Assembly (NCBI GenBank): GCA_964556685.1 | Contig: CAZKWX010000001.1 | Span: forward strand, 95,854-159,853 | Origin: an uncultured Bdellovibrionales bacterium | GTDB taxonomy: Bacteria; Patescibacteriota; Minisyncoccia; Moranbacterales; DUUL01 | Length of the DNA stretch: 64,000 nucleotides | Direction: 5' to 3' | Part shown: one piece after another, positions 3,606-50,918 of the stretch | How the letters are laid out: each line of letters opens with the position of its first letter | Position numbering within the stretch: position 1 is the stretch's first letter | Program-made: the position numbers and the translations under genes | Notes under the pieces: model-generated | Database searches by the model: none | Told to the model about the DNA's origin: nothing | Seen by the model: the letters and a program-made list of their open reading frames with translations, nothing else

Positions 3606-3666
3606 GAACTCCTTTTTTGTTCTGGTGCCGGGAGGGTTCTCCCGGCACCTTGGTTTAAATGTCTCA

Positions 3667-6426
3667 TCAGACTTTTATCCCCCGATGATACGTAACAACG
3701 TATCGCATCAACGGAGACACCAGAAGAATGGTTGCCATGAGACAAAGGAAAATTACCATTTCTTCCAGCCTCCCCAACATGGCCACGGGCATTGCTAGTG
3801 AAAAGCAGAGCCCTACAAACATGAGCATGTTGGTGACGCAGTCACCGCAAACATCAACAGCAGCGTTGACCATTTCTTTTTTCCTAATTACTAGGCCAAA
3901 AAGCTGGCTTTTACTGATGATTACCATTGTTTCATCGCTGAGTGCCAAGGTGCAATACCACCCCAGCATCAATAATGGGAAATCCACCGCAATTGTAACT
4001 GCAATTGGTCCGATCGTGGTATTGGCGATATCCATGGGCATACCGAACGCCCACATCGCTAGATACATTCCAGCCTGCGCCACGATAAATGGCACGGCCG
4101 TCACCACTCCTAACATCAAGAATGATACTGTCCAGGCGCTGTCTGACTTTCTAAAATGTCTTTTGAACGCCACGCCCGCCATCAGGATGACTACCAGTTG
4201 AAGTAAGAAGTTGAACAGAAAGCTGTTCTTCATAATTACTCTGTCGGACCCGACCCAGCGAGCTAAACCGCTAGGAAATCTGTTTGGTAAGGAGAAAATT
4301 CTTTCCACCTCATTTTCGATGAACACCATGACATTTCTCATGTCAGGTGTCGGCTGCTCTCCGGTGGAAACTTTGAGTAGGAAGTCACAGCGTGAGTTTT
4401 CTTCCGTTGGGCGCTCCATGCTTCTGCGAGCCAGATACGATTCTCCCCAACGGGCTTTACTGTAGCTCCAGACCTCATTCCAGGTTTGGATCAGTGTCTC
4501 GCGTATGCGGGTGGCGATGTTAAGATCAGTAAGCTCAATTCCCTCATCCAAGAGATCTTCGATCGCCAGCTCTCTTAAAAAGGAACTGACAACCCGACCT
4601 TCTTCGTAGCCAAAGTCCTGCAGACGTAGAACAAAATCGTCAACGGGAGAGTAGGCTCGAACTACCAGCCTATCTCGCTCAAGGCTATTTCTAAGGTCAA
4701 CGAGCTTGTCGATAACCAACGGATCGCCCAAGTCGATCTTTTCAAGCGTGGGCGTGAAAATATTCGATCCAGGTCGTCCTTCTTTGGCCAGCTCCTGATG
4801 GAGTTTGGCCTGTTGATTATCGGACAGGTAGGGCTCTGGATCATTTTGCTTACCAAGAAAAAACGTTGGCAAGACAAAATAGAAAATCAACGAAACTGCT
4901 GCGATTGACCAACAAACTTTGGTACTATGTCGCCACAGTACCCATCGACTGAAAATCCAGCTGATGGTTCTATTCAAAAAGTTGTTGACCGTTCGTGACC
5001 ACCGTGACAACTTGCCTTGAGATTGCTCAATTTTCTCGTTAGCTCCGCCAATTAAATAATATAGAATCGGCAGAAAGTTACGACACAGCCAGTAGGAAAT
5101 GATTATGGCTGAAATTGCCACTATGCTAACTTGAAAAATTGATTGAGAGCCTTTCAGATGACGGATATTCAACGCGACTGCAAAATCCGCGATGGAAATT
5201 GCAAACACCACTGTCACCATCCAGAGTTTAGATTTGACACTTTCCCATCGTTGCCAGTATTCGCCGGTACTACGACCGAGCTCTTTGGCGTGATGAAAGT
5301 TGAATGAGACACTAGACGCCAACGCAACAATAAACGCTACGCTGGTGTAGACATCTTCATTCGAGTGCCAAATGTAATCATTAGCCAGCCACAGAATTGC
5401 CTGACTAATTGGATCGTCACCGGTTATGGACTGATTAGCCCATTGAATAAAATCACTTAATGCGCCAATTGTTCCACGTGCAAACGCGAAACAACAGAGA
5501 ATGTTTAACCAGACTGCAAATGCTTGACGCCAAGATCCCAACAGAACTGTCAGAAAAAATGGAGCCAGACAAAGCATTATCGTACACATGAGGTAAGCAA
5601 ATAATGCGCAAACCGCTGTGACGATGTAACGTCCTCTCGACCAGCTGTACATTCCGTTGAGCTTGTTCTCCTCGTTTAGGGGGAAGCCTAAGTCGGCTTT
5701 AACCGTAATAACCTCCCCGGAATCAAGCTCTAACACGAAATTATTAAATGATGAATGCAGCTCATACCGAGGTTTGAGGTTTAATTCAAACCAAGTCCAC
5801 AAATTTTTTAGATCGAAACTAAAAACCAGTTCTCGCAAACTCCAGTTAAGGTCATAATCCTCTTCGCCCATAAAAAACAGGCTCAAGTATTGATTAAAAA
5901 CCTTTTCGTCCATCTCTTGATCGGGAATGAACAAGATTTGGGTGTAGATATAGTTTTCACTCCTCTCTGTCTTCACTCGACCAAGCAAATCGTCTCTCAA
6001 ACTACGCTTGGCATAGTTTTCTTCAAACCATTTTACCGGGTCGAAGTTTTCGTCCAGCACCATCTTCGAGGTGATAAAGTATCCCCTCGAATCCATTCGC
6101 GTGGCCAACGACGATATATCAACATTGATCCCACGGTCGTGGAAAAAATAGCGTCCCCGCTTAGCCATATTTTCAATAGCTAATAAGTTATCGCGGGTCA
6201 CTTTTCTCATGGGGATATACTTGGGCACAGCACAATCGCTGTATTCAATCTTAGATATTTCCTTTAGATATCTTTCGTCCTGCGCATAGCGGCTATCGCC
6301 ACGCAGCGCATATTTGACCATGGAAATCACATCCACGGCCCAATTTCCTTCCCAGCCTAAAACATAAAACATAGCCAGAAATATCGTTACCGTACTCGTG
6401 ATCTTCCATTTCAATTTCATTTTCAA
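3667..6426 (-). CDS. RND/MMPL-superfamily exporter (12-TM, two large periplasmic loops)
   Basis: The 919-aa protein has an N-terminal TM, a large soluble loop and a block of 5 TM helices. A second loop and a second TM block follow. This is the classic RND/MMPL topology. Confidence 0.6.
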   Translation of the reverse strand: MKMKLKWKITSTVTIFLAMFYVLGWEGNWAVDVISMVKYALRGDSRYAQDERYLKEISKIEYSDCAVPKYIPMRKVTRDNLLAIENMAKRGRYFFHDRGINVDISSLATRMDSRGYFITSKMVLDENFDPVKWFEENYAKRSLRDDLLGRVKTERSENYIYTQILFIPDQEMDEKVFNQYLSLFFMGEEDYDLNWSLRELVFSFDLKNLWTWFELNLKPRYELHSSFNNFVLELDSGEVITVKADLGFPLNEENKLNGMYSWSRGRYIVTAVCALFAYLMCTIMLCLAPFFLTVLLGSWRQAFAVWLNILCCFAFARGTIGALSDFIQWANQSITGDDPISQAILWLANDYIWHSNEDVYTSVAFIVALASSVSFNFHHAKELGRSTGEYWQRWESVKSKLWMVTVVFAISIADFAVALNIRHLKGSQSIFQVSIVAISAIIISYWLCRNFLPILYYLIGGANEKIEQSQGKLSRWSRTVNNFLNRTISWIFSRWVLWRHSTKVCWSIAAVSLIFYFVLPTFFLGKQNDPEPYLSDNQQAKLHQELAKEGRPGSNIFTPTLEKIDLGDPLVIDKLVDLRNSLERDRLVVRAYSPVDDFVLRLQDFGYEEGRVVSSFLRELAIEDLLDEGIELTDLNIATRIRETLIQTWNEVWSYSKARWGESYLARRSMERPTEENSRCDFLLKVSTGEQPTPDMRNVMVFIENEVERIFSLPNRFPSGLARWVGSDRVIMKNSFLFNFLLQLVVILMAGVAFKRHFRKSDSAWTVSFLMLGVVTAVPFIVAQAGMYLAMWAFGMPMDIANTTIGPIAVTIAVDFPLLMLGWYCTLALSDETMVIISKSQLFGLVIRKKEMVNAAVDVCGDCVTNMLMFVGLCFSLAMPVAMLGRLEEMVIFLCLMATILLVSPLMRYVVTYHRGIKV

Positions 6427-11256: not shown

Positions 11257-11784
11257 TGTTATAAATTACGGATTACAGATCAGATACAAATATACAGATG
11301 TACGAATAATCCTAAACTCTAATAGAAGATTTTTTATTAGTATATTCGTATTTGATTCGTCTCTCGAAGGGAGATCACCCTCCGGGTGATAATTAGTAGA
11401 GAAAAACAAAACCCGTCCCAATAATCCCAAACATATTGTCTGAAATCATCAGGACGAGCTTCTTCTATCTTCAGTACTAGCTACAAGTTACTAGTTACTG
11501 AACTACCCGCGGTTCCACCTGAATTCGTTTTGTTACGTAGCATGCTACGTAACAAACGCTCTTGTTTTTGTTGCTAACTCCGGGGTGCCAATCTCCCATC
11601 AACATTAGCGAAACTAGAAATAAGTATAAATCTTTTTATTTGCATGTCAATAGCAAAATCCACGATTTCAAATCCCCCCTACTTCGTCCCGAATGCTCGG
11701 GACTTCGAAGGGCAGGCCTGAAAAATGTGGCTCATGCTTCGCCTACATTTTTTCCCCCTTTGCTAAAAGGGGAAATTTCCTCTC

Positions 11785-14343
11785 TCATTCCTGAATCCTC
11801 TTTTCCAATACCATCGCCACAAAACTATCCCTTTCTAATTTGCTTTGAAATATGGCTGTGCTCTCTTTCACTTCCAATTCCCTGGGATACTGCCAAGCTA
11901 CTTGAGTACCGCTGTCATATTTAACTACAGAGTTAATTCTGGAGTTAATTGACCCGGCTTGTTTTTGAAACAATATTGAATATGAATCACCTTCGCCACT
12001 GAGGTCCACCTTGAAAGGCAACTTATACTTATATTCAATTTCCATTGTCTCCTTGGGTGATACATAGGTCCAATTGGCAAAAACTGTCTTGTTTTCCTCT
12101 TTATAAACTCGCGTGCCAGTTTCATGATCGACCTGCATACTCATTTCTTGAGCTAGCACATCTGAATCTGTTGCGAAGCCCAAAGCTTCATAGTCAACTG
12201 GTGGATCTGTGAATTCCCTTGTTTGACCTTTCACTTCCAGGAGCTCACTGCCTTTGGGCACATAAACTCGCATATAATTCGCATTGACTTGATCGTGCCA
12301 TTCTTTCCCTGTGTCGCCTCCTCGATGATATCGCCGCACTTTGACCGTATTGACAACTGAACCATCTGATTGAATTTCTGCTGAATGTGAAATTTCTTCA
12401 TCAATCACGCCGTCAGTTTTGAAGCCATTGATGTTGGAATTTATCACCATTAAATAATCTTTTTCAGTTTGCAACACTTCACCGGACCAACCTCGTTTTG
12501 AAATTACTCCTTGCACTTCTTCGTTGGTTGAATGGAGCAGAATGTGTTTTTCCTTCAGAGCAGTTGAGAAAATATTCATTATCTTAGCAGCACTGCGAGG
12601 ATCCTTCTGCTCAAACAAGCGGCCAATAATTTGAGGTGCCAAATCAGCCAGAATTTGCTTGGGCTGATTCTCTTCCTTATCAAAATCCACTTCAACCTCT
12701 TGCTGCACCTCCTGCATGAAATTTTCGCTGGAAATAACTTTCTCATATTCTTCCATATTAATCGGCCCAGTCACTTCTAGCATTTTTTGCAGCACCGTGG
12801 GCGTCAGGGTGATAATTCCGTCAACCGTCGGACCGCCCGTTTTTTCATAGAACCAAGAGATTTTTTCGGCTGAAGTGGGAAAATGAGGAAACCAATTGGC
12901 ATCGTGAGTTGACCAGCCAGCCGAAATCTTTTGGATCGGTTTGGGCGGAATGACATTTTCTGAAAGATGCCAGTCGGGATTATAAATTCCATCAATAAAA
13001 AGCTCTTTTATCCTTCCATCGCTGATGTGTAATATTCCATAACTGCCCACAAATCCACCGGTGGCTCTCATTTCGTGATTGTTTTGAAACAGCAAGAGGT
13101 ATTTTCGCGGACCGTTGTGGCCTAAAATCTCCAAAAACACTTGCGAATTTTGATCAATATCGTTAACTGCTTTGGAAAAAATCGGGAGATTTTTTTTGAT
13201 CATGCTCACTTTGGCTTGATATTCATCTGGCAAATCTGTCACGTCAACTTTGGCTATTTTTTCTTCTGCAATCACCAGCGACCCTCTGGCTTCCTTGATG
13301 TGACCGTTAGCTTTAAGATAGACATCAGTGAGCGATTGATTGCTTTCTGGATCAAAAGGATTTTTGACACCATTCAGCACTTGGGCCACTTGAGCCAATT
13401 CATAGCTGGCTTTAGCCAATTCATTTCCTGCTTCAACTAGGTTTTTTCCGCTGCTCAATTTTGATAAAAATGGCAAACCCGAAAAAATATCTAGCACATC
13501 GCCCCCAAGTTTCTCCATCTGCTCTTGGGCTCGACCAAATTCCTCAATGGCATCTTCGAAATTGCTGTTGGCCGAGTCATAATTCTTGCTTTCGAAAGCA
13601 GCGGTCGCAGCCATCAAACGCTTGATGGCCATTTGCCCACCGTCTTGAGCGTTGGTTTTGACTTGAAAGCCATAAGAAAAAAACATGAAGACAAAAATCA
13701 GCACCGCTGCTGCAGCCGAAACAGCAGTAAAATTGAGTAGCGGTTTCCCCAGCCAATTCGCTCGCGGTCCATCCAAAATGTCTTGATAGTTAGAAAATAA
13801 AGAAAATTTCTTCTTGTACTTCTTTTCTTCCTCTGACAAAAAATCATCAATTTTTTCTTCCAATTCAGTTTGTCTCTGATCTTTTTGAGTTGGCAGTTGA
13901 TTATCATCTTCTGTAGAAGTCTGATATGTTACAGCTGGTGCTTGCGCAGTTTGAATAGGCTGAATAGGCAATGGCTTTCTTTCGGGTAGCTCGCCTCTTC
14001 GAACAATATCGGCATTAAAAGCTTTTCGGCTTTCTGGAACATGAGAAGATTTTATTAAATGCGGATATCGCTCTTGCTGGCTGTCAAAAACCTGATTGAA
14101 TTGAATTCTGTTGGCCTTGGCTGGAGTCACTTCCTGGACATCCATTTGTGGAAGCTGCTGTGGCTGTAATGGTTGTTGTGATTGGGGCGATTGAGAGGGT
14201 TGTGGAGGCTCTAAATCTGCTACTTCAATCGGCCTTTTTCTCTGAACTTCTTTGCCTATTCTTTCCTCTTCCTCAACCACATCTAAAAACGGACGATCTT
14301 CATCGTGCATTTGAGACGTCTTTTTTTCACGATTATCTTCCAA
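11785..14343 (-). CDS. DUF4012-domain membrane protein with Q/P-rich N-terminal region
   Basis: Low-complexity Q/P-rich N-terminus, one TM, and the conserved block LLLFQNNHEMRATGGFVGSYGIL typical of DUF4012. Confidence 0.55.
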   Translation of the reverse strand: MEDNREKKTSQMHDEDRPFLDVVEEEERIGKEVQRKRPIEVADLEPPQPSQSPQSQQPLQPQQLPQMDVQEVTPAKANRIQFNQVFDSQQERYPHLIKSSHVPESRKAFNADIVRRGELPERKPLPIQPIQTAQAPAVTYQTSTEDDNQLPTQKDQRQTELEEKIDDFLSEEEKKYKKKFSLFSNYQDILDGPRANWLGKPLLNFTAVSAAAAVLIFVFMFFSYGFQVKTNAQDGGQMAIKRLMAATAAFESKNYDSANSNFEDAIEEFGRAQEQMEKLGGDVLDIFSGLPFLSKLSSGKNLVEAGNELAKASYELAQVAQVLNGVKNPFDPESNQSLTDVYLKANGHIKEARGSLVIAEEKIAKVDVTDLPDEYQAKVSMIKKNLPIFSKAVNDIDQNSQVFLEILGHNGPRKYLLLFQNNHEMRATGGFVGSYGILHISDGRIKELFIDGIYNPDWHLSENVIPPKPIQKISAGWSTHDANWFPHFPTSAEKISWFYEKTGGPTVDGIITLTPTVLQKMLEVTGPINMEEYEKVISSENFMQEVQQEVEVDFDKEENQPKQILADLAPQIIGRLFEQKDPRSAAKIMNIFSTALKEKHILLHSTNEEVQGVISKRGWSGEVLQTEKDYLMVINSNINGFKTDGVIDEEISHSAEIQSDGSVVNTVKVRRYHRGGDTGKEWHDQVNANYMRVYVPKGSELLEVKGQTREFTDPPVDYEALGFATDSDVLAQEMSMQVDHETGTRVYKEENKTVFANWTYVSPKETMEIEYKYKLPFKVDLSGEGDSYSILFQKQAGSINSRINSVVKYDSGTQVAWQYPRELEVKESTAIFQSKLERDSFVAMVLEKRIQE

Positions 14344-14403
14344 TTTTAGTTTTGCTTTTATTTATTACTTTAAATCTGATAATAACGCCTTGCGTTTGAA
14401 ACC

Positions 14404-14573
14404 TTGAGTTACGAGACTCATCCCCCCCTCTTCTAAAGAGGGTGCTGAATTTATTAGTAATGAATTCAGGGGAGTTCGTCTGTATGGCTGGCGACTACTG
14501 TCATTCAAACTAACCTCCTCCCTGCACTCGTCTTCAACGAGCACAGCCCCTTAACAAGGGGAGGGATAAAAAC
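14404..14573. repeat. multi-hairpin repeat element, left inverted copy flanking the GT4 pair
   Basis: A 40-nt identical core (agagggtgctgaatttattagtaatgaattcaggggagtt) plus hairpin modules (ccccttaacaaggggagg) match the reverse complement of 17341..17500. Confidence 0.8.
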
Positions 14574-14574
14574 A

Positions 14575-15714
14575 TTACGCATTCTCTTTATAAATCTGTA
14601 AGATCTCTCCAGCCATTTTGCCCCAATCAAATTTCTTAAGATTCTGCAAAACTTTTTCTTCGTTAAACTTAACTCCTTCATCCACTCCTTTCTCGATCGC
14701 TTTAGCAATCGAATTAACTTTTTCAGGGTCAAAATATTCAGCACAGTCTCCCAAAATATCCGGCAGACAGGTTTTTGATGACGACATCACTGGCGTTGAT
14801 TTGGCCAGCGCCTCCAAAGGCGGCAACCCAAAACCTTCATAGAGCGATGGGAAGATATAGAACTTAGCTTCTCGATAGAGCACGTCCAGATCTCGATCTG
14901 AAACATAGCCTGGAAAAATGATTCCTTCGACTTTGTTGTTGACTGTAAATTCTTTCAGTCGGTTATAGAAATATTCTTCCCCGCCGACTAAGACCAAATT
15001 CAACTCAGGATATTTCTCTTTTGCTTTTGCATGTGCCAAAACCAGCCGCTCCAAATTCTTATGCGGATAGGCGTTCCCCACATATATTATGTACGGCTTG
15101 ATTATACCATACTTTTTGAGAATTTCCTCTGCTGGTTGCTTCGGAACATAGCATCGGAAATCACAACCCTCATGAATCATTTCTATTTTGTTAGGATCTA
15201 TTTTGAGCTCATCAATAATATCCTTTCGAGTAAAATCTGATACGGCAATCGCCTTGGCCGCCCGTCTTGCTGCACTCCAGATGATCCAATGATAGGCAGC
15301 CAGCTTAAGATAATAAAAAAACCTGTTGTGCGTGGTGTTTCGTACTGTAGGATAGTGAAAAAGAATCAAGTCGTGGATAGTAACAATAAATTTTTTTCGA
15401 TAGAGCAACGGGACATTGAAGTGACAAAAATGCATCAAATCCAGATTGAATTGGCCCAGAAAGAATGGAAATTTAAACTGTTCCGCAAAAGAATACCAGT
15501 GATAATCAGCTTCAATTTTTTTGAAGTTTTTGAACTTGGGGAGATATTCATTGAAGTTGTCTTTTTTGAGAAAAATGTAATATTCTCGCTTTAAGCTCCC
15601 TCCATCAACATCTTCAAGATATTCAACCAGTTTTTGGGCATAACGACCCAATCCCTTGCCTTTGGGACCCAAAAAACGAGCATCAATCCCAATGCGTTTT
15701 GGTTTTGTTTTCAT
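14575..15714 (-). CDS. glycosyltransferase family 4 (GT4, group 1)
   Basis: GT-B fold with a C-terminal EX7E-type region (PSLYEGFGLPPLEALA). 379 aa. Confidence 0.8.
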   Translation of the reverse strand: MKTKPKRIGIDARFLGPKGKGLGRYAQKLVEYLEDVDGGSLKREYYIFLKKDNFNEYLPKFKNFKKIEADYHWYSFAEQFKFPFFLGQFNLDLMHFCHFNVPLLYRKKFIVTIHDLILFHYPTVRNTTHNRFFYYLKLAAYHWIIWSAARRAAKAIAVSDFTRKDIIDELKIDPNKIEMIHEGCDFRCYVPKQPAEEILKKYGIIKPYIIYVGNAYPHKNLERLVLAHAKAKEKYPELNLVLVGGEEYFYNRLKEFTVNNKVEGIIFPGYVSDRDLDVLYREAKFYIFPSLYEGFGLPPLEALAKSTPVMSSSKTCLPDILGDCAEYFDPEKVNSIAKAIEKGVDEGVKFNEEKVLQNLKKFDWGKMAGEILQIYKENA

Positions 15715-15803
15715 GGCTATAGTTTATCATACATTTTAACTAAAAAAAAACGAGGCTGGTAAAACCAGCCTCTAAGTGGATTACTTGACGATGATTCAAG
15801 CAA

Positions 15804-16070
15804 CTACCAGCCTTCTTTAATATCGAAACCACAGAATTCGAGCAAGTTCGTAAGATTGACAATCAATCTATTCGACATTGCTGTTCTTTTTAAGGTGGCT
15901 TCTTTCATTCCCCCTTGGAAGATAAGTACCAGCACGGTATCGCTTGAATCAGTGTAAAACGTCGCCGCTTCTTCGTCTGCCGACATTCTAAACGGACCCT
16001 CCTCGTTGTAATCTTTGTTGAGATAATTCGCCATAGCTTTTGCCAATTCTAGAAAGCCCTTTCCTTTCAT
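15804..16070 (-). CDS. hypothetical small protein between the two GT4 genes
   Basis: 88-aa ORF in the same orientation as the flanking GT genes. No recognisable motif. Confidence 0.35.
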   Translation of the reverse strand: MKGKGFLELAKAMANYLNKDYNEEGPFRMSADEEAATFYTDSSDTVLVLIFQGGMKEATLKRTAMSNRLIVNLTNLLEFCGFDIKEGW

Positions 16071-16170
16071 ACACTCCTCCTTTTCGTTCCCTATATTCTA
16101 TTTGATTTCTTTCTGTCTGTTTATCAAATTAGTTTTCTGTGTTAACACACTTATTGCTTATTGTCAAATT

Positions 16171-17307
16171 TTATACTATTTTTACATTGATATCGGCTTT
16201 TTTCTTTATTTTCTCAGCCCGCTTTTTGCCTCTCTCCCTAAAATGATTTTGTAACTCCTTGTTTTCCAACAGATTTCTTAATGCTACATATATTTCATTG
16301 GGGTTATATGGATCAATCAAAATGGCACTGTCGCCGGCCACTTCCGGAAAAGATGAACAATTGGAAGTGATCACTGGAGTGCCAGAAGCCATTGCTTCCG
16401 CCACTGGAAAGCCAAAGCCTTCATAGAAAGAAGGATAGATAAAGATTTTCGCCATTTGATAGAGTGCCGGTTTGTCTTTTTCATCGACATAACCCGGCAA
16501 AATTATGTCGGCTTGATATTCTGAATTTTGGACTACCTGGAAAACTTCCCGGTTGGACCAACCTGATTGACCAGCAATGACGAGTTTCAGATCTAGTAGC
16601 TGAGGAGATCCCTTTTTAAGCAATTTAAAAGCTTGAATGAGCGAAACAACATTTTTTCTTGGCTCGATAGTTCCCAGAAAGAGAATAAAATCTTTCGATA
16701 GTTTATATTTATTATTCAACTTGGCCCTGTCTTCCCAGCTCAATTTAAAATCCAAATATTTCATCAGATTATTGATCGGCGTGATCACCTCAATCTTTTT
16801 TTCGTCTATTCCATAGAGTCCTGCCAAATCCTGTTTGGTTGACTCGGAAACGGCTAAAATTTTGTCAGCTCTTCGACACAGTCGACGCGAATTGATGACA
16901 AAATGCCAAACTCTTTTTTTGAATGAAAAAAATTCTGGGAACCTTTCAAAAGAAAGATCGTGAATGGTCAGCACCATTTGACATTTATCCGAAACTGACA
17001 CAAAGCCAATGTTGGGCGCAAAAAAAACATTCACTCCGCCGAGCAGGATGTCAATTTTGGGCCAGCCGAAAAACCAAATCAATCCATTGAGCAGTTTGTT
17101 GGGATAGCTATACTTTCTTATTTCTACATTCGGATATTCTTCTAGCCATTTGAGATCCGTTTCAATTTTCTTGAATGAATTGATAAACAAAACATATTGG
17201 TTTTCTCGATCATTCTCCAAGGTCTTTTTCAAAAAGCCCACGGCATATTCTTCCACCCCGGTTATTTTGCCCTCCGTTAGACATCTGATGTCAATTCCAA
17301 TGGTCAT
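16171..17307 (-). CDS. glycosyltransferase family 4 (GT4, group 1)
   Basis: GT-B fold with a C-terminal EX7E region ([21 protein letters not shown]). 378 aa. Confidence 0.8.
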
Positions 17308-17340
17308 TTTCCGTTTTTCTCTATAATATTATGTTGGTAT

Positions 17341-17500
17341 GTTTTCCTCCCCTTGCTAAGGGGAGGGCTGAAAAGCGGATGAGCTTTTCAGGAGGGGTTA
17401 GTCTAAATGGCAGTAGTCACCAGCCACTTGGACTAACTCCCCTGAATTCATTACTAATAAATTCAGCACCCTCTTACCAAGAGGGGGAACGCAAACTCTA
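17341..17500. repeat. multi-hairpin repeat element, right inverted copy flanking the GT4 pair
   Basis: Reverse-complement homolog of 14404..14573. It contains hairpins cctccccttgctaaggggagg, gctgaaaagc..gcttttcag and ccctcttaccaagaggg. Confidence 0.8.
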
Positions 17501-17545
17501 ATAGTTAACGTTGCTAAATATAATAAATCAAATTAACTTTTCATA

Positions 17546-18160
17546 TCAATCCTCCTTCCAATAATGTTTAGTCATCACTCCAAAAATTGCAAAAAGAAGT
17601 CCCAAAATGATAGCACTGGTCAGCACGGCCAAAAATGGCGCCTGCTTTCTTTCCACCACCGGACCAGTGAAAACAGGCTTGAACCAATCTTGTTGAGCTG
17701 AATCGGCTTTGAGCATTTCCACTCGATCCGAAACTACCATGTTGACTGATTTAGAAATCGCATTCGCTTGATCAGGATGCATCACCAAAAATTTCACCTG
17801 AATATAGGCTGGTGCCAATTGTTCTGCTTTAAATGAATTTTTATATTCCGCTAAAGCATCTCCTTGAACCCCCAGTTTGGACTGAGAATAAATAGCCCCC
17901 ACCATGCCTGGCTCCTTGAGCCATTGAGTGACAGTTTTGGCAAATTGGTCGTCGGCTTCCAAACGATAAAACTGATCAAAATCATACTCTTTGGCTTGAC
18001 TTCTTGAGCCTTCCCGAGTGATGTCAACTGAAATCATGGCTTGAAAGTGTCGCGGCCAAAAAGACAGCACAATTAGCCCAATCAAAACTATGCCCAACCA
18101 AATCCCCCAAAAGAGATTTTTGTGCCTTTTGATTATTTGGATGTATAGTTTTAGTTCCAT
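17546..18160 (-). CDS. Wzz-like polysaccharide chain-length determinant family protein
   Basis: TM helices at the N- and C-termini bracket a soluble domain. The gene lies adjacent to glycosyltransferases. Confidence 0.45.
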   Translation of the reverse strand: MELKLYIQIIKRHKNLFWGIWLGIVLIGLIVLSFWPRHFQAMISVDITREGSRSQAKEYDFDQFYRLEADDQFAKTVTQWLKEPGMVGAIYSQSKLGVQGDALAEYKNSFKAEQLAPAYIQVKFLVMHPDQANAISKSVNMVVSDRVEMLKADSAQQDWFKPVFTGPVVERKQAPFLAVLTSAIILGLLFAIFGVMTKHYWKED

Positions 18161-19806: not shown

Positions 19807-22572
19807 TTAAGCTTTCTGAGGAGACCCCTCAATTGCAACTGCTGATTTTTGTTTTTTCCGTTTAACTAATAAGTGAACTAGCAATATTGCCAGCAATGTG
19901 ATCGGGAACCAGAGCATGGCATCACAACGATAGATCCACCACAAGACCAAACCACCAATCGTGAAAGCTGCCGGCACAACATACTTCCTCATGCCACCCA
20001 ATTCTAGCTCTTTATTGTTCCAGCGAAACAGCGACCAGTTGACCGCCAAGCCATATGAAACCAAAGCTGCAATCCAAATCCAAAGCGGCAACGCGGCACA
20101 AGCCTTGGCATCTGAAACCCCCAGCACCGGTGCTGCTTGAGCAGCCGGAACCAATTCAAAAGGAGGTTCACCTTCTTCAGCTCCGACATAATATCCTTCA
20201 TTCACCACTTGCATGGCCAGGATTGCTTTTCCACTTCTAACTTCATCATCCATCGGATCATCGCCCTTAGCTTTGGCCACGAACTCATAGATTCCGGCAG
20301 AAGCCGAATTATTAATTAGCAACATATATTCAATCATGTACTCGGCTCCTTCTTCCATGTCACCCAATGGCCAGACATATTTGGCGATTTCCACTCCGGC
20401 ATCATTAAATAATCGATCAGAAAGCTTCACATCATAAATCGTGCTATCTCCATCGTTTTCAACATAAATCACGTGATAGACAATTTGACCGTTCACCACT
20501 GGAGCAGAAATGGTTTTCTCTCTCTTCACTTTCAAGCTCGAATCAGGACCCAAATAACTCTCAACCTCATATCCATATTCATACTCGTTATATTCACCTT
20601 CATAATTGTAATAAAGTTTTGTCTCATCTGAATCTGAGTTATTACCCTTTTCCTTTTCTTCAGTTTCAGTGACAATCTCAACTTCAGCGAAAAGAATTTC
20701 TGGCCCGTTTTCAGATTTGACAATAACTTTCATTTCTCCTGCTTGTCCACTGGGCACACTGCCCAAATCCCAAGTATGCGATTTTTTTCCACCCATTTCT
20801 CCACCATTAAGCGACATTGCTAAAGATACATTTTCCGCATCGGCTTTTCCATTGTTTCTAAATTTAACTGTATATTCATTCTGCTCGCCGGCTTCTAGCT
20901 CCTCTTTTCCATCATCAATTTCGACTTCCAATTCCGGATAGGCGAACTCCAGATCTCCTGTCCATTCACCCATAACATTAACCACCCCAAAGAGCCAGTT
21001 GCTGCCAACGATGTTAGTGTTGACCAGGTTGAAAATGTTAGAAAAGGCGCCAGCGTTACCAGTGTTAATTGCCACATCTCCTCCATTTTGATTAGCTTGA
21101 TTTTCGCCAGTGTTTGCATTGGCCTGAGCTGTGTTCGTAATATTTGCTAGGTTGTAGTTTTTAACTGTTAATTTTGCATCCCCTTGCCCTTCTTCGTCGG
21201 CTAAGAAAACATACCCCAGTTCGTCACCTTCATCGCCAAACCAATTTAAGATTTTTCCCCACCAGTTGCCATTTTCGTTGATAGTTAAAGAAAACCAATT
21301 GCTGCCAACAATGTTGGTGTTGGCTTGCGTTTCAACTTGGCTTTGAGCAAAGGCATCGCCAGTTTCAATTTCGACATCGCCATCATTCCCGTTGGCTTCA
21401 TTGTCGCCAGAGTTGGCACTGGCCCCCGCATCATTTTCAATGTCAGCTTGATTTACATTTTCAATTTCAACTGATGAATATTCATTGTTGAAAAATGGGA
21501 AAGACAGCAAGCCTTCTCCCGGAACAATTAAATCTCCTGACCAGTGACCGAAAACGTTGATCACAACAAAGACCCAATTGTCACCCACAATGTTGGTGTT
21601 GACTATATTAACTACATTGACCACTGCTTGAGCATTGCCAGTGTTGATTTCCACATCCCCTTCGTTCTCATTAGCTTCATTTCTTCCTGAGTTAGCATTA
21701 GCCTCTGCATCATTTTCAATGTCAGCTTGATTTTTGTTTTCAATGACTAATTCATCTGGACCTCCATCTTCTTCTTCATTATTTTCCTCTTCATCCATCA
21801 ACCCAATTAGTTTAAGAATGATCTCTAGCAAATTTATATCCTCTTCACTATAACCATAAATATTTTCAACTAAATCTTCCCAGTTCTCACCGACAATATT
21901 TGTGTTAACTTCATTATAGATATTAGCTTCGGCTTGGGCATCTCCAGTTTCGATAATCACTTCATCGTTGTTCTCTTCGTCCCCTTCTTCGCCATTCTCC
22001 TCCTGATTTTCCTCTTCCTCTTCGTTTGATGTTTCCTCCTCTTCGGTTTCCTCGATTGCTGCTGCTTCCTCATTTAGTTCGACTTCTTCCCCTTCTTCAT
22101 TTAACTCCGCTGTTTCTTCTTCATTTTCTTCCTTGGGCGGACATTTTTTCTTTCCTTCATTATTTTCATCTCCTTCTCCTTCTTCATTGTTCTCTTCTTC
22201 GTGAACTTCACATTCATCTTCCTCTTCGTCGACTGATTCTTCTCCGTTATTATTAGCTTCATTGTCACCAGTGTTAGCATCAGACGTTGCTTCATTATCA
22301 ACATCGGCATCATTTTCATTTTCAATCTCCACTTTGGTTTCTTTTTCGTTGTTTCCTTCTTCTTCGTTATTCTCTTCTTGTTCTTCCTCTCCCTCTTCTT
22401 CCAACACTTCTTCTGTTTCTTCTATTACTTCCTCGGTTTCTTCCAGAGGCTCCTCTGCTAATGCTTGTGACACCGCTAACGGCATGGCGGCTTGAAGCAC
22501 GACCAAATTCATGGTTAGCACACCAACCATAAATGTTTTTAGTACTTTTCTCTTTTTGATCTTCAACAACAT
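19807..22572 (-). CDS. large acidic tandem-repeat surface protein (signal peptide, DUF11/CARDB-like module, C-terminal TM anchor)
   Basis: Signal peptide, a poly-E/N acidic region, and at least four copies of an ~55-aa motif (ENxNxADIENDAxAxANSGxNEANxNxGDVEIxTGxAxA...NTNIVGxNW). The C-terminus has two TM helices. Confidence 0.6.
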   Translation of the reverse strand: MLLKIKKRKVLKTFMVGVLTMNLVVLQAAMPLAVSQALAEEPLEETEEVIEETEEVLEEEGEEEQEENNEEEGNNEKETKVEIENENDADVDNEATSDANTGDNEANNNGEESVDEEEDECEVHEEENNEEGEGDENNEGKKKCPPKEENEEETAELNEEGEEVELNEEAAAIEETEEEETSNEEEEENQEENGEEGDEENNDEVIIETGDAQAEANIYNEVNTNIVGENWEDLVENIYGYSEEDINLLEIILKLIGLMDEEENNEEEDGGPDELVIENKNQADIENDAEANANSGRNEANENEGDVEINTGNAQAVVNVVNIVNTNIVGDNWVFVVINVFGHWSGDLIVPGEGLLSFPFFNNEYSSVEIENVNQADIENDAGASANSGDNEANGNDGDVEIETGDAFAQSQVETQANTNIVGSNWFSLTINENGNWWGKILNWFGDEGDELGYVFLADEEGQGDAKLTVKNYNLANITNTAQANANTGENQANQNGGDVAINTGNAGAFSNIFNLVNTNIVGSNWLFGVVNVMGEWTGDLEFAYPELEVEIDDGKEELEAGEQNEYTVKFRNNGKADAENVSLAMSLNGGEMGGKKSHTWDLGSVPSGQAGEMKVIVKSENGPEILFAEVEIVTETEEKEKGNNSDSDETKLYYNYEGEYNEYEYGYEVESYLGPDSSLKVKREKTISAPVVNGQIVYHVIYVENDGDSTIYDVKLSDRLFNDAGVEIAKYVWPLGDMEEGAEYMIEYMLLINNSASAGIYEFVAKAKGDDPMDDEVRSGKAILAMQVVNEGYYVGAEEGEPPFELVPAAQAAPVLGVSDAKACAALPLWIWIAALVSYGLAVNWSLFRWNNKELELGGMRKYVVPAAFTIGGLVLWWIYRCDAMLWFPITLLAILLVHLLVKRKKQKSAVAIEGSPQKA

Positions 22573-22771
22573 GTCTATGTATATTTAGAAATAATTTTGT
22601 AACCCTTGAATCGAGTCCTGATTTTCTTAAGACCTACTACTTACAACCAGACATACAACCAACGCCCTTCTTACCTACTGCCTTCCAATAAAGTCCACGG
22701 CTGAGGGGAAAAGTTTACCACCGCTTTCCCCCTCGAGCTGAGAACTCTATCGCTTATAAGCGATCACGTAA

Positions 22772-23287
22772 CTATCGGATCCTGGTTACGTTGCTGTTCA
22801 CCAATACTGTAGCTTCTGCCCAAGAGTCAGCATCGCCAGTATAGATTTCTACTGCTCCACCTCGACCTCCACAACGACCACACCGTCCTCTTCTGCTTCC
22901 ATTGTCATTAGCATCGTTCTTGCCAGTGTCTGATTCAGCGCTAACATCATTGTCAACGTCAGCGTCGTTTCCATTGCCTACCCACACTCGACTGTGCCGA
23001 CCGCTAATCATAGTTCGGTTTTCGTTAGCGGTTGTGTCAGCGTAAGCATCAGATATAGCATCGCCGGTATCAATCATAACTCTTCTGGCTCGGTTTCGAT
23101 TAGCATCGTTCTTACCAGTGTCTGATTCAGCGCTAACATCATTGTCAACGTCAGCGTCGTTCCAGTTTTCTACTGAAACGCTAGACCCACGATGATGATG
23201 GCGTCCTGCGAAAGCTGGAGCAACTACGAATGCAAATACTATAGCCGCTACAGGAATAATTGCTAAATACTTTTTCATTTTGTTCAC
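22772..23287 (-). CDS. secreted paralog carrying the same repeat motif
   Basis: Signal peptide plus two copies of NDADVDNDVSAESDTGKNDAN...TGDA. Also His-rich and Gly/Arg/Cys-rich segments. Confidence 0.55.
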   Translation of the reverse strand: MNKMKKYLAIIPVAAIVFAFVVAPAFAGRHHHRGSSVSVENWNDADVDNDVSAESDTGKNDANRNRARRVMIDTGDAISDAYADTTANENRTMISGRHSRVWVGNGNDADVDNDVSAESDTGKNDANDNGSRRGRCGRCGGRGGAVEIYTGDADSWAEATVLVNSNVTRIR

Positions 23288-26448: not shown

Positions 26449-26670
26449 TTTTTTTACAATTAATAATTACTTTATTTTTTGTAATCCTTTACGAATTACT
26501 AATCAAATACCAATATACCAATAAAAATCCTAAACTCTAAATTCAAATACCTGAAATTCAAAATGTTCTGAGCTTAAAATTTGGAAAATTTGAATTTATT
26601 TAGGGTTTAGATATTAGGATTTAGGATTTAAACAAATTCGTATATTCGTACAAAATTCGTAATTCGTAAC

Positions 26671-37354: not shown

Positions 37355-37382
37355 CACTCTCATATATGCATATATGAGAGTG
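37355..37382. repeat. 28-bp perfect palindrome cactctcatatatgcatatatgagagtg (second copy at 50669..50694)
   Basis: Verified base by base. It lies directly between the leuS stop and leuS-3' copy 2. Confidence 0.85.
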
Positions 37383-37388
37383 CTCGTG

Positions 37389-40300
37389 TTAAGTTACAAT
37401 GTTAACTAGCCGTCCTTTCACATAAATCACTTTCTTTGGTTTCTTTCTTCCTAAGTGTCTTTGTACTTTTTCGCTTCCCAAAGCAATCTTCTCTGCTTCT
37501 TTCTCTGAAATATCTTTTGAAACCATCACTTTATCACGCACTTTGCCATTGACCTGAATCACCAATTCAATTTCATCTTCAATTACTTTCTTGGGATCAA
37601 ACTTGGGCCATCTTTGTTCAAAGATTGAAGTATGCTTCTGGGCTTTCTTATTTTCCCCCTTTAGCAAAGGGGGTGTCCCGGCCTTGCCGGGACGGAGGAT
37701 TTGAAGTTCAGCCCAAAATTCTTCCGCTATATGAGGTGCCATTGGGGCTATAACCAATGCTAACGTCTCTTTTACCTTTTTAGCTTGAACTTTGTTAAAA
37801 TCATCTTTGTGATCCCGCATCCAGTTGACATATTCCATAATCCTCGCCACTGCTGTGTTGAAAGAAAGTTTTTCAATATCTTCTCCAACAACTTTGATTG
37901 TTTTGTCAATCATAGACATGTTCAATGGCTTTGTCTTGTTTTGTAGATGACGCAGATCTGCGTCATCTACAGACTTTGTATCGTCTGCTCCTACCTCATG
38001 AAAAACTTTCCACATTCGATTGAGGAACTTGTGCATTCCTTCAATGCCACTGTCTCGCCAGTCACCACCTTGGGCAAAGTCTCCTACAAATCGAAGATAG
38101 AGCCGTACAGTGTCAGCACCATACTTTTTGATCGCATCATCGGGGTTAACCACATTGCCTTTCGATTTGCTCATCTTAGTCCCGTCTTTGGTAATCAAAC
38201 CATGTCCAAAAAATCTCTTGTAAGGCTCGTCAAAATCAATGTAACCCAAGTCTTTCAAAACCATGGTCATGAAACGAGAATAAAGAAGATGTAAGACTGT
38301 GTGCTCCTTGCCACCAATGTAACTGTCCACCGGCAGCCATTTCTTGGTTCGCTTTCTGTCAAAAATCACCTCATTAAATTCAGTCGATGGATAGCGGAAA
38401 AAATACCAAGCGCTGTCGAGGAACGGATCCGAGACATCGGTTTCTCGCTCGGCGTCTCCTTCACAAACTGGGCATTTAACTTTGACAAACTTTTCATTTT
38501 TGGCCAAAGGCCCCTTGCCTTTCCCTTCCGGCAAAAAATCTTCCATCGGTGGTAATTTCACCGGAAGATCTTCCTCGGGAACCGAGACTGCCACTGGCTC
38601 AATACTCTCTTGGATTTTCTCTAGCAATTCTGGAAACTTCTTATTCTTTGGATTATCATCTACACAAAAATGCTTCCTGCCTTTAAGTTTTATTAATTTT
38701 GCACCCAACTTATTGCTAATCATCTCTGCACTTTCAACTCGATGAGTTTTGTCATTTGAGATAAAAATGGTCAGACTCTCAATCTGGTTTTTCAAACTCG
38801 AGTCAATTTTAAAATCAACAAAGCCTTTTATTCGCTCTTCTCTCTTAACTAATTTTTTAGATGGAGCATTTAAAATAACATTTCTAGCTTTTCTCCCTGT
38901 TTCTGATAGCCATTTTAATATAAAAGCTCCTCCGGCACTTGTTCCAACTAAAATTGTATCTTCATCAACATCAAAATTATCAATAGTTTCTTTCCAGTCT
39001 TCATAGTCCGGCTTCCAGTCTGTCGGCATAATTGGATTTATAACTTCAAATCCGTTCTTTTTCAGCTCTTTTTCAAGCCAGCTATGCCAATGTCGAACAT
39101 TCGGTTCAACATAATCTTTGTCGTGAGCTTTCGTCCGACCTGAAGAACCATGGATCATTAAAACTTTAATCCTTTTCAGCCCCTCCTTTTTCCTCCCCTT
39201 ACTAAGGGGAGGATTTAGGTGGGGTCCAAGCGCACAGCGCTTGCACCAGACAATCGGAATCGGCGGCCCCCAATATCTTTGCCGTGAAATGCACCAGTCA
39301 CGTAATTTGTAATTAACCGTCCATTTTCCATTTCCCTTTTCGACAGAAAAATCACCAATTGCTTTTCGAGCTTTCTTGGTTGGCATATCATCGAATTTCC
39401 CAGCATTCATCATCAGTCCCTCATTAACATAAGCCTTTTTCATTTTCTTTGGATCAAGCTTCTTTTCTCCCTTGGGATAAATCACGGGCACCAAATCTAG
39501 CTTATATTTTTTGGCAAACTCAAAATCTCTTTGATCGTGAGTGGGAGTGCACTTTACAATTCCCGTGCCATATTCATAGACAGCGAAATTAGCAGTATAA
39601 ATTGGCATTTCCCGGCCATTGAGATGATTGATCGCATACCGACCTGTAAAAAATCCTTCTTTCTTCTTTTCGACGTTGGCTGGGTCTTTGACTTTTTCTT
39701 CAATCACCTTCCGGCAGAAATCTTTGGCTCCTTTTTCATATTTTGTGCCTTGGACTAATTCATCAACAACAGGATGTTCTGGAGCAACAACCATAAAAGT
39801 AGCTCCCCAAGTGGTGTGTGGCCAGGTGGTAAAAGTTTTCAATTTTAATTTTATATCTTTGACTTTCCATTCTTCTTCCAAACCTTTACTTTTTCCAATC
39901 CAATTCCTCTGATTGGTTTTCACATCATCCGGCCAGTCGATCCAATCTAAATTCTTTAATAGCTGATCGGCATATTTAGTAATAGCAAAAAACCATTGCT
40001 TTAATTCTTTTTTCTCAACAACGCTGTCGCAGCGTTCGCACTTTCCTGCAATCACCTGTTCATCAGACAAAACTGTTTTACATGAAGGACACCAGTTCAC
40101 CTTGGCTTCTTTTTGATAGGCTAGTCCCTTCTTGAACATCTGCAGAAAAATCCATTGAGTCCACTTATAATAATTCGGTTTGTAAGTCTCCACTGTCCGC
40201 GACCAATCATACATGTTTCCGATTTCATGCAATTGCCGATAGAAATTTTTCTCACTCCTTTTAGAAACATCGCTAATGTGTTCGCCAATTTTCATGGCAT

Positions 40301-41402: not shown

Positions 41403-41520
41403 TAAAGACAAAAGGGGCTCGAAATCACTTTTTACATACCGCGGCTTTATTAAAAGTCGCGGTTCATCTTTTTTTGGGAATATGCTATAATTTAACAAAG
41501 AAGATTCTCTTCTCAGGTTT

Positions 41521-41640
41521 ATTTGCTTCCCTTGGTGCAAGGGGAGATTAAGAGGGGTTAGCTTGAATAGCAATAGAGACCGGCCAATTCACTTAACTCC
41601 CCTTAGTCCCCTCTTTCCAAAAGAGGGGAAATGAATAAGT
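41521..41640. repeat. short copy of the multi-hairpin element family
   Basis: cttcccttggtgcaaggggag...gaggggttagcttgaatagcaatagagaccggccaattcacttaactcccc...cccctctttccaaaagaggggaaa. It aligns to 17341..17500 with the central gaattc hairpin deleted. Confidence 0.7.
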
Positions 41641-49394: not shown

Positions 49395-50918
49395 ATGCAG
49401 AAACTCAACCAATATAAAATCTATCTATTTTATCTCTTCCTTTTCCTCATTCCGTTCAATTTGCGGATAATTTTTAATTTCGATCGAATCAACAATCTCG
49501 AAGGTTTTCGCGAACACATCACACACTCTTTCTACGCATTCGATTTGATTTTTATTCTGTTATTGCTAGTTGTTCTGCTTGATTGGCTGCAGAATAAACG
49601 ACCAAAGACTTCAACATCAAAAAAGATTTTCACTAACCCCCTTTTCTATTTCGTTATAACGACCGTTATAACGTCGGTTTTGGCCCTCAACCAGACAGTG
49701 GCTTTCCAACAAACTTTGAGGATCGCACAAGCAGTCGTTTTCTTTTTGATAGCTAATAGCATTCTTTCAAGTTCCCCCTCTTGGGGCAAAAGTGGAGAAT
49801 TGCGAATGAGTAATTCTCGGGGAGTTAAGAAACCCGGATGGGATTCAAAACCATTTTATATTTCAATCTTAATAATTTTTCTTAGTGGAACTCTCCAATC
49901 ACTTATTGCTCTTTGCCAGTTCATTTTTCAAAAATCAGTCGGACTGAAAATTCTGGGGGAAAGCGTCATTGCACCAGAAATTTTGGGCGTGGCTAAATTT
50001 GAAATCCTGGGAGAAAAACTGATCCGCGCTTATGGCACTTTTCCTCATCCCAATCTTTTAGCTGCGTTTTTGTTACTGTCGTTGGCCTGTGGAGCTTTCT
50101 TGTTGATTTATAAAAAATCTTCTCCCTTTTACAAGAAAAAATATAAATATGTCAGCGATCTGCTTTCCAAAAATTATTTCTATACAATTGGAACTGTAAT
50201 GATTTTATTCGGTGTCTGCCTGACCTATTCTCGCAGTGTAATCTTGGCTACTGTCGTTTTTATTATTTTATTGTGGATTGGACATCGCAAAAAAGTAGGC
50301 GATGTCTATCGAGGCTGGTGCAAACAACTGCGTATTCATTCTATTTTCCAAACAGCCTTAGCAGTGTTGGCAATTTTTGCAGTTACTTTTTTACTTTATA
50401 ATATTTTTGCTCCCCGTCTTTGTTTTTCTAATTGTTTTAATGACAATTCCATTGAACTGCGAGGAAGATATAGCGCTGCCGCAGCAGAAATTATTGTTCA
50501 AAATCCACTCACCGGAGTGGGACCAGGAAATTTTGTCATTGCCCTAGCTGATTCTTCTGTCGGTGCAACGCTTCAACCTTGGGAATTTCAGCCAGTTCAT
50601 AATTTGTATCTGCTCATTGCTTCAGAAATCGGTCTCGTCGGCCTGGTATTTCTCCTAATCTTTGTTTCCACTCTCATATATGCATATATGAGAGTAAAGT
50701 TGGGGCGCACTTTGAATCTGCAATCATTGGTTGGAAATCCTTTTTTTATTTTACTTTTGGCTTTCCTTTTTCTGGGATTAATTGATCATTATTTCTGGAC
50801 TCTTCCTCAAGGACTACTCATCTTTTGGCTTAGCCTTGCGTTTTTTGATATGTCCAGTAAGATAAAAGTTGAACCCAAACAGAGGAGGTCACATGCCCTA
50901 CGTACCGAAATATACTAG
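49395..50918 (+). CDS. O-antigen ligase/polymerase-like integral membrane protein
   Basis: About 12 TM helices with a periplasmic-loop YSRSVILAT motif typical of the Wzy_C/O-antigen ligase family. Confidence 0.5.
   Translation: MQKLNQYKIYLFYLFLFLIPFNLRIIFNFDRINNLEGFREHITHSFYAFDLIFILLLLVVLLDWLQNKRPKTSTSKKIFTNPLFYFVITTVITSVLALNQTVAFQQTLRIAQAVVFFLIANSILSSSPSWGKSGELRMSNSRGVKKPGWDSKPFYISILIIFLSGTLQSLIALCQFIFQKSVGLKILGESVIAPEILGVAKFEILGEKLIRAYGTFPHPNLLAAFLLLSLACGAFLLIYKKSSPFYKKKYKYVSDLLSKNYFYTIGTVMILFGVCLTYSRSVILATVVFIILLWIGHRKKVGDVYRGWCKQLRIHSIFQTALAVLAIFAVTFLLYNIFAPRLCFSNCFNDNSIELRGRYSAAAAEIIVQNPLTGVGPGNFVIALADSSVGATLQPWEFQPVHNLYLLIASEIGLVGLVFLLIFVSTLIYAYMRVKLGRTLNLQSLVGNPFFILLLAFLFLGLIDHYFWTLPQGLLIFWLSLAFFDMSSKIKVEPKQRRSHALRTEIY

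Follow-up and report, generated by a model that had tools for sequence, protein, structure and literature searches.

Inverted multi-hairpin repeats around two glycosyltransferase genes of a Candidatus Moraniibacteriota glycan operon: a probable case of two separate insertions

Repetitive extragenic palindromic (REP) elements are mobilized by RAYT Y1 transposases and are by definition extragenic. Rickettsia palindromic elements (RPEs) are found in intergenic positions as well as in frame inside protein genes (PMC10969869), and Chunjie of Geobacter uraniireducens, a miniature inverted-repeat transposable element (MITE), lies between operon genes and leaves them intact, according to the same source. 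Here, we analyze two multi-hairpin repeats, A1 and A2, that bracket a pair of family 4 glycosyltransferase (GT4) genes in a Candidatus Moraniibacteriota (Patescibacteria) genome (contig CAZKWX010000001.1). The window, i.e., the whole stretch of DNA that was analyzed, spans 64 kb, and all coordinates refer to it unless another locus is named. A1 and A2 most likely inserted independently of each other, as copies of one multi-hairpin element resembling MITEs, REPs, and RPEs, in two spacers of an envelope-glycan block that is ancestral. They would have been placed there separately, in opposite orientations, when C-rich/G-rich hairpin modules expanded in the lineage of this genome, the spacers being intercistronic and the block, made up of Wzz-like, GT4b, GT4a, and DUF4012 genes, vertically inherited. 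Since the repeats settled in the gaps between genes, their bracketing of the GT4 pair would be a by-product and would not reflect a transposon-like or invertible-switch design.

The two arms are the longest inverted repeat that a repeat search retrieved across the window (14424-14515 and 17396-17487; 92 nt, 87% complementary). Gapped BLASTN aligned 14424-14521 with 17487-17391 at 85 of 98 identical columns (87%, one gap, E=1e-30). A previous inspection of the letters alone, hereafter the sequence-only reading, had described inverted repeats of ~170 bp. The arms are indeed reverse-complement homologues, but the homologous unit measures ~150 nt on either side (Table 1), and the outermost 13-20 nt of the earlier delimitation (14404-14423 and 17488-17500) show no homology between arms. 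The 40-nt identical core proposed in that reading was recovered at exactly two sites on opposite strands, 14437-14476 (+) and 17435-17474 (-), with no match in 100 shuffles; the identity in fact extends over 41 nt, the second copy being 17475-17435 on the opposite strand. Given 13 differences over 98 columns, at least 41 identical columns in one run are expected with P ~0.006 by permutation, and the arms around this core are 13-20% diverged. Constraint on the first two hairpins (HP1/HP2), a mosaic origin, or gene conversion could each explain the run.

Beyond the core, the modular composition of the arms departs. A1 consists of HP1 (14426-14442), HP2 (14445-14469), a degenerate HP3, an HP4 of its own (~14522-14546), and HP5 (14547-14561), whereas the A2 hairpins are HP1 (17485-17469), HP2 (17466-17442), HP3 (~17441-17394), HP4 (17391-17368), and HP5 (17366-17346). 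Accordingly, a module of ~25 nt is non-homologous between the arms (14522-14546 versus 17367-17391). The terminal hairpin CCCCTTnnnnAAGGGGAGG, of the form CCCCTT-nnnn-AAGGGGAGG, is common to both (14547-14573 and 17341-17366). The differences between A1 and A2 in HP4 and in sequence outside the core mean that this pair of ends did not arise by a fresh duplication. A1 fills the GT4a-to-DUF4012 spacer (14344-14574, 231 nt), starting 1-2 nt past the GT4a stop codon, and A2 fills the Wzz-like-to-GT4b spacer (17308-17545, 238 nt), ending 33 nt upstream of the GT4b ATG. Pfam assignments agree with the earlier description of the enclosed segment: the repeats surround exactly GT4, an 88-aa open reading frame (ORF), and GT4, between the DUF4012 gene and the Wzz-like gene.

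The same locus in related genomes gives these insertions their context. Searching one genome per species with the DUF4012 protein retrieved 34 loci, nearly all from Candidatus Moraniibacteriota or other Patescibacteria, the best being 55% identical. In 13 of the 13 related Patescibacteria loci where the four genes are all present, they follow one another on a single strand as Wzz-like, GT4b, GT4a, and DUF4012, ten of the loci being identified by tblastn (L005, L008, L013, L014, L019, L021, L023, L025, L026, and L037) and three more by independent gene calls on the closest GT4b relatives with long contigs (L039, L041, and L043). By tblastn, L017 and L033 hold GT4b-GT4a-DUF4012 with no Wzz-like match, and GT4a followed by DUF4012 recurs in ~30 loci. 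This conserved order and strand mark the GT4 pair as old residents of a compact block. Measured by ORF bounds, the Wzz-like-to-GT4b spacer ranges from -4 to 39 nt in relatives (7 in L041, 17 in L043; 120 in L039) versus 238 nt in the window, and the GT4a-to-DUF4012 spacer is mostly 0-60 nt versus 231 nt; the repeat makes up ~150 nt of each expanded junction. The variable spacer among relatives is the one between GT4b and GT4a, with 18 to 4915 nt. Neither repeat-bearing spacer yielded anything above chance-level BLASTN matches in ~507 kb of related loci, and the core pattern GGGTGCTGAATT-N11-AATTCAGGGGAG had no match in the genome and metagenome contig collections. In L039, the closest of the long-contig relatives, the spacers on both sides of GT4b (2307-2428 and 3576-3690; 120 and 113 nt) are filled by an unrelated AT-rich (TTTTAAA)n palindromic repeat. 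The junctions around GT4b seem to tolerate lineage-specific repeats.

Family A, to which A1 and A2 belong, is represented in the window by three non-coding copies of ~110-150 nt, below the 500-bp limit for a MITE, plus one partial copy. The third copy, A3, is intergenic and carries HP1, HP3, and HP5 without HP2 and HP4; the partial core lies in a gene for an O-antigen-ligase-like Wzy_C protein. A second multi-hairpin family, B, has an element next to the DUF4012 gene (Table 1), an inverted copy at 29147-29295, and partial copies at 42049-42108 and 48355-48522, with blocks at 11.7 kb and 29.2 kb that are 92-94% identical in inverted orientation. A terminal hairpin of the CCCCC/GGGGG type is common to both families, and the family-B copies, like A1, A2, and A3, vary in the modules that they contain. 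The window has 11 perfect hairpins in which one arm consists of C and T only, versus 0.13 in shuffles and 2 in related Patescibacteria loci totaling ~559 kb. The third and partial copies thus uphold the assignment of both repeats to a dispersed multi-hairpin family, made already in the sequence-only reading. Its fallback explanation, two independent insertions, is the one favored by the short spacers of relatives and by these further copies, some of which are inside genes.

Module insertions lie in frame at three sites within conserved genes. The leucyl-tRNA synthetase (LeuRS) gene (37389-40583) accommodates two of them. At its C-terminal site, a pair of hairpin modules encodes a peptide (RPGKAGTPPLLKGENKKAQKH) that Thermus thermophilus LeuRS and 8 of 9 Patescibacteria orthologues lack; in the ninth, that site has a different insert. 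At the second site, an HP5-type hairpin encodes a stretch containing NPPLSKGRKK that is extra with respect to T. thermophilus LeuRS and all nine orthologues; positions 39188-39212 of this hairpin are 96% identical to 17342-17366, within A2. The partial family-A core in the Wzy_C gene (49395-50918) corresponds to an in-frame insert of 24 residues, SSPSWGKSGELRMSNSRGVKKPGW, that none of 8 orthologues shares. Their absence from orthologues identifies the modules at these sites as insertions and not as conserved regulatory DNA.

Family A combines traits of several described systems. REP elements, bacterial interspersed mosaic elements (BIMEs), and REPINs are likewise short imperfect palindromes amassed in spacers between co-directional genes; they also come in mosaic hairpin combinations (as A1, A2, and A3 differ in HP2/HP4) and in both orientations, form stable hairpins when transcribed, and lack target-site duplications. 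Unlike REP sequences, to which they are unrelated in sequence, the window modules are also found in frame in genes (twice in LeuRS and once in the Wzy-like gene), and no RAYT gene was detected among the window ORFs scanned. Bacterial MITEs such as Chunjie, ERIC (the repetitive intergenic consensus of enterobacteria), and Correia/NEMIS resemble family A in length (~110-150 nt), non-coding character, dispersal, pairable ends, and location between operon genes that are not destroyed. Unlike them, family A has no consistent target-site duplication, and its terminal "inverted repeats" are two separate hairpins of the same type. To our knowledge, the family-A repeat has no parent insertion sequence. 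In behavior, the window elements match RPEs, palindromic repeats of a reduced genome that lie between genes and in frame in conserved genes at permissive sites, with orthologues lacking them. RPEs are ~100-150 bp long and each of their families has a conserved peptide, whereas the coding insertions of the window are single or double modules of 51-72 nt. RPE hosts belong to a different phylum, which gives no reason to expect sequence homology, and the likeness is one of behavior.

The ends and flanks of the repeats inform on how such elements might move. Of the 9 positions of the 5' end of family A, CCCCCTCTT, 7 agree with those of the reverse-complemented 3' end, CCTCCCCTT, each end being also a self-contained hairpin, and RNAalifold pairs 5' CCCCCTCTT with 3' AAGGGGAGG of the element. 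A 3-nt CAT is a possible target-site duplication on both sides of A1, whereas A2 is flanked by GTT and CAT, which leaves no consistent duplication. Together with the modular make-up, the lack of a target-site duplication is more in line with a mechanism directed by hairpins, REP/RAYT-like or other, than with a classical cut-and-paste MITE. The elements may have spread through recognition of their hairpins by an enzyme encoded elsewhere.

The sequence-only reading had given precedence to either a composite mobile cassette or an invertible or excisable segment. In a composite cassette, two MITE-like copies would move GT4-p88-GT4 as one unit, in the manner of MITE-flanked resistance cassettes. 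Two inverted copies of one repeat family do flank a 3-kb gene set here, and MITE-bounded composite units have been described in other bacteria (references in PMC10969869). We nevertheless regard this scenario as barely credible, and its mobile cassette is contradicted by synteny. The cargo occupies the ancestral position and orientation in the 13 four-gene relatives. The outer flanks of the whole unit, GAGACTCAT on one side and AACGCAAAC on the other, share no direct repeat. With a GC content of 0.39-0.42 and a third-codon-position GC (GC3) of ~0.41, the enclosed genes match the flanking ones. Finally, a Pfam scan of 56 window ORFs, several of the large ones without any match, found no recombinase, integrase, invertase, or transposase, the sole hint being a weak HTH_7 match from a TrmB-type helix-turn-helix protein. 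The attL/attR sites of an integrated element were also considered for the pair and discarded, the repeats being inverted and not direct.

Surface-glycan genes are a common target of phase variation, and a segment that inverts or is excised to switch the glycan repertoire had been the other function suggested for this geometry. RecA-dependent recombination across the 41-nt core, or an invertase encoded elsewhere, would flip GT4b-p88-GT4a relative to the operon promoter and turn glycosylation on or off. True inverted repeats do flank the segment, the cargo is of the expected kind, and the identical core, longer than chance predicts, could be a gene-conversion tract. Some programmed inversions are known to operate without a recombinase gene nearby (PMC9881135). 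The balance of evidence makes such a switch highly unlikely, and it finds no support in the locus comparison. All 13 four-gene loci show the orientation of the window, the source assembly crosses both arms in this ancestral orientation, and the 64 kb are devoid of recombinase domains among the ORFs scanned. The arms are intergenic, with no clear promoter whose flip would matter; their differing modules and 13% divergence are unlike homogenized invertase sites, and the repeat family is scattered elsewhere, including inside genes. The fimS and hin/hix loci and the capsule promoters of Bacteroides, like the window, have inverted repeats that flank a segment, in this case within a surface-polysaccharide locus. 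Unlike these systems, the window has no nearby invertase, its repeats come from a dispersed family and are not a dedicated pair, and they enclose whole ancestral genes in one orientation across relatives instead of a promoter or alternative coding ends.

Public assemblies are neutral on orientation. In exact-protein look-ups for strain-level variants, the matches were all Logan contigs with 100% identity to the window, derived from at least four sequencing runs; they end at 17464, 14465, or 14541. Their gene order shows a single orientation, but the first two ends are situated 30 nt inside the shared core, exactly where contigs of a k=31 graph have to stop; contigs that break there for this reason carry no information on orientation. 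The third end, at 14541, is outside the 41-nt core and is common to two independent contigs (L001 and L003), which suggests that the HP4-HP5 30-mer at this site, GCACAGCCCCTTAACAAGGGGAGGGATAAA, has another copy or variant elsewhere in those samples.

Several observations weigh against two separate insertions, the explanation that we favor. The comparison with related genomes that the sequence-only reading had recommended established a fixed order and orientation with short spacers, but it includes no strain-level pair: the collections contain no close relative, the nearest being at only ~60% protein identity, and GT4b itself has its nearest homologue, besides the identical one, at 62% identity among 5.8 billion proteins. 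Thus, neither a filled-versus-empty site at the DNA level nor a genome with one copy was seen. The 41-nt core is longer than chance predicts, and if gene conversion maintained it, the arms would recombine with each other. Mobility is deduced from distribution only, with no transposase or cognate enzyme apparent among the window ORFs. Finally, short-read de Bruijn contigs are blind to the orientation of the segment.

Table 1. Positions of the repeats, hairpin modules, and genes discussed in the text
Feature	Sequence	Position	Strand	Remarks
Family-A multi-hairpin repeat, copy A1 (left arm)	window	14424..14573	+	nhmmer E 1e-47
Family-A multi-hairpin repeat, copy A2 (right arm), inverted with respect to A1	window	17341..17487	-	nhmmer E 9e-49
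41-nt core	window	14436..14476	+	3' arm of HP1, whole HP2, then GGGGAGTT
Third family-A copy, A3, intergenic	window	41519..41631	-	nhmmer E 2e-26 (A3 itself part of the model)
Partial family-A core in the Wzy_C gene	window	49770..49841	+	HP1-like, HP2 variant, then GGGGAGTT
Family-B element with multiple hairpins, immediately downstream of the DUF4012 stop	window	11662..11776	+	
Two hairpin modules, GTCCCGGCnnnGCCGGGAC and CCCCCTTTnnnAAAGGGGG, in frame in LeuRS, C-terminal site	window	37632..37694	-	encode RPGKAGTPPLLKGENKKAQKH
HP5-type hairpin, in frame in LeuRS, second site	window	39177..39227	-	encodes ..NPPLSKGRKK..
Wzz-like gene, first of the conserved four-gene block	window	17546..18160	-	weak Pfam match, E 0.0024, below the Pfam cut-off
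GT4 glycosyltransferase GT4b	window	16171..17307	-	Pfam; orthologues directly after the Wzz-like gene in relatives
88-aa orphan ORF	window	15804..16070	-	strong Shine-Dalgarno, AAAGGAGG
Intrinsic-terminator-like hairpin, then T9, between the 88-aa ORF and GT4a	window	15752..15772	-	only good site of the region in the terminator scan
GT4 glycosyltransferase GT4a	window	14575..15714	-	Pfam; in relatives, orthologues immediately precede DUF4012
DUF4012 protein, last gene of the conserved block	window	11785..14343	-	Pfam
Hairpin-flanked DUF559 gene	L086	2091-3200		
Hairpin-flanked DUF559 gene	L091	3693-4283		
Hairpin-flanked DUF559 gene	L050	1347-1905		
Hairpin-flanked DUF559 gene	L121	564-1010		
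Hairpin-flanked DUF559 gene	L096	2-309		
Hairpin-flanked DUF559 gene	L117	2493-2857		

Inserted between co-directional genes, the elements would be transcribed within the operon mRNA. Read in the sense of the genes, A2 folds into five consecutive clean stem-loops with a minimum free energy of -71.6 kcal/mol (z -8.55 versus shuffles). Its stems are CCCUCUU/AAGAGGG in HP1, CUGAAUUUAUU/AAUGAAUUCAG in HP2, a long HP3, CUGAAAAGC/GCUUUUCAG in HP4, and CCUCCCCUU/AAGGGGAGG in HP5. A1 is more degenerate, with fold z scores of -2.5 as transcribed and -3.6 on the + strand, and its HP4 differs from that of A2. The five-hairpin model leaves 85.8% of cells paired in the three family-A copies versus 44-54% when the partners are slid, and the HP1 and HP3 pairings are kept in all three copies with 5 compensatory pairs, a weak covariation signal that derives from three sequences and from a structure taken from one of them. 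Such stable hairpins might uncouple cistrons that used to be tightly packed and could affect how the mRNA is processed or how stable it is, in the way of REP/BIME, ERIC, and Chunjie-type elements. Any present-day effect of the repeats is probably exerted at the RNA level, through uncoupling, processing, or stability of the operon transcript.

A stronger version of this idea holds that the hairpin arrays are exapted cis-regulatory RNAs, kept to set the relative expression of the Wzz-like, GT4, and DUF4012 genes as mRNA stabilizers, processing sites, or partial terminators; it would add to two separate insertions and does not exclude them. The well-formed A2 fold, the HP1/HP3 pairings with their compensatory changes, conservation of the core beyond chance, and the position of both copies inside a co-directional gene block speak for such a role, for which REP, ERIC, and Chunjie offer precedents (PMC10969869). 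We consider it unlikely all the same. Transcription reads the two copies in opposite senses and does not give the same RNA from both, and A1 is degenerate as transcribed. The terminator scan found no intrinsic terminator, i.e., no hairpin followed by a U-run, within either A1 or A2. Relatives do without any such spacer, and the covariation, read from three sequences on a structure from one of them, is weak. Rfam 15 at gathering threshold returned three tRNAs in the window and no match on the repeats. A single long-range mRNA stem that would loop out the cassette was considered as well and rejected, for want of evidence in its favor and on account of the divergence of the copies and of the terminator inside (15772-15752). 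A TIGR-Tas array was dismissed too, as neither a tandem array nor a Tas-type protein is present here.

Hairpins of the C5/G5 type extend well beyond this genome. At least 120 metagenome contigs of the Joint Genome Institute (L046-L165), with GC contents from 0.29 to 0.66, contain the pattern TTCCCCCTTT-NNN-AAAGGGGGAA. Among the matches listed, the flanks of TTCCCCCTTT-nnn-AAAGGGGGAA are strikingly conserved (AAATCCCCCT.. and ..AGGGGGATTT), and a 103-nt two-hairpin element recurs at no less than 96% identity in ~25 contigs. In L092, L114, L121, and L153, another GC-rich hairpin is nested exactly in a loop of this element. Inverted pairs of the 103-nt element, in contigs unrelated to the window, flank ordinary genes, e.g., an aminotransferase gene in L128 and a membrane protein gene in L099, which indicates that a bracketing geometry arises without any cassette. 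The family-A profile found only two weak nhmmer matches in the 120 metagenome loci, and Rfam reported tRNAs only in 15 of the metagenome loci carrying the hairpin.

A gene of the DUF559 family (Vsr-like nuclease) was found in 7 of the 120 listed loci (Pfam E 3e-35 for the L086 example). C5/G5 hairpins lie no farther than 46 nt from this gene in six of the seven, and on both sides in four; in L086, hairpin arrays with a 100-nt period stand on either side of it. The arrangement is like that of REP sequences around RAYT genes. These hairpins may constitute a widespread and undescribed superfamily of tiny mobile elements (core CCCCCTTT-nnn-AAAGGGGG, commonly within AAATCCCCC...GGGGGATTT) that insert beside or within each other, in spacers, and, in frame, within genes, with the DUF559 (Vsr-like PD-(D/E)XK) nuclease as a possible cognate enzyme and the window pair as a local trace of an RPE-like invasion. 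We put this forward as a tentative proposal, with the odds against it. There is no DUF559 gene in the window. More broadly, neither the window nor the related loci have a DUF559 or PDDEXK_3 gene near the repeats, with one exception: a PDDEXK_3 gene for a PD-(D/E)XK nuclease (45992-46396) is flanked by a different repeat, i.e., 37-nt TTCGTA-rich inverted repeats at 45946-45982 and 46414-46450.

The window contains further repeats and insertions. Spacers within 26450-29760, around the ribosomal protein genes rpsD, rpsK, and rpsM (S4, S11, and S13), contain TTCGTA/TTCGCA-rich direct repeats. An 80-nt repeat with a GC hairpin occurs at 27410, 28190, and 28773 (93-98% identical), between the S13, S11, and S4 genes. 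TTCGTA runs like those near rpsD/rpsK/rpsM adjoin the family-B elements at 11333 and 29282, and the end of family B, GGGGGGATTTGAA, is like the T-loop and 3' stem of a tRNA. Internal direct repeats with units of 94-113 nt (62-86% identical) characterize the gene for a DUF11-containing surface-type protein of 921 aa and the next ORF (21053-23173). A small ORF at 57442-57747 matches the "23S rRNA-intervening sequence protein" family (PF05635), with no rRNA gene near.

Besides its hairpin modules, LeuRS contains an insert of ~211 aa at residues ~455-665 (38589-39221), with a Ser_hydrolase domain (PF06821), between the CxxC motif and VPEEDLPV. This insert is common to many Patescibacteria orthologues (1027-1200 aa), some of which have NUDIX or GIY-YIG domains as well, and thus represents an ancestral domain insertion in an essential enzyme. 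A perfect AT-rich palindrome of 26-28 nt, (C)ACTCTCATATATGCATATATGAGAGT(G), is located just past the LeuRS stop codon (37355-37382) and again in the Wzy-like gene (50670-50695), where it is in frame and encodes TLIYAYMRV in a stretch longer than in orthologues. In the glycan block, the 88-aa ORF has no Pfam match and no homologue across related loci. It comes with its own terminator in a GT4b-GT4a spacer that is usually 18-78 nt in relatives, and ORF and terminator resemble a lineage-specific insertion by which the operon is split. An exact-protein look-up has no record of the Wzz-like product.

The kind of element is already known; what merits a further look is its Patescibacteria host, the in-frame insertions in LeuRS and the Wzy-like gene, and the possible link to DUF559. 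A literature search on repeats or MITEs in the Candidate Phyla Radiation, Patescibacteria, or Parcubacteria retrieved nothing relevant.

To conclude, nothing in this glycan locus indicates that envelope glycosyltransferases are switched by flipping or moving a cassette, and the genes form a stable, ancient block. Our findings rather depict a reduced Patescibacteria genome that would have undergone a lineage-specific burst of modular hairpin repeats, by which a formerly compact operon was loosened. The in-frame modules in the essential LeuRS parallel RPEs, whose bacteria form another reduced and host-dependent group. Should the C5/G5 family and its link to DUF559 prove true, they would point to a role of a nuclease family that is very common and of "unknown function" and reveal a new selfish repeat system.

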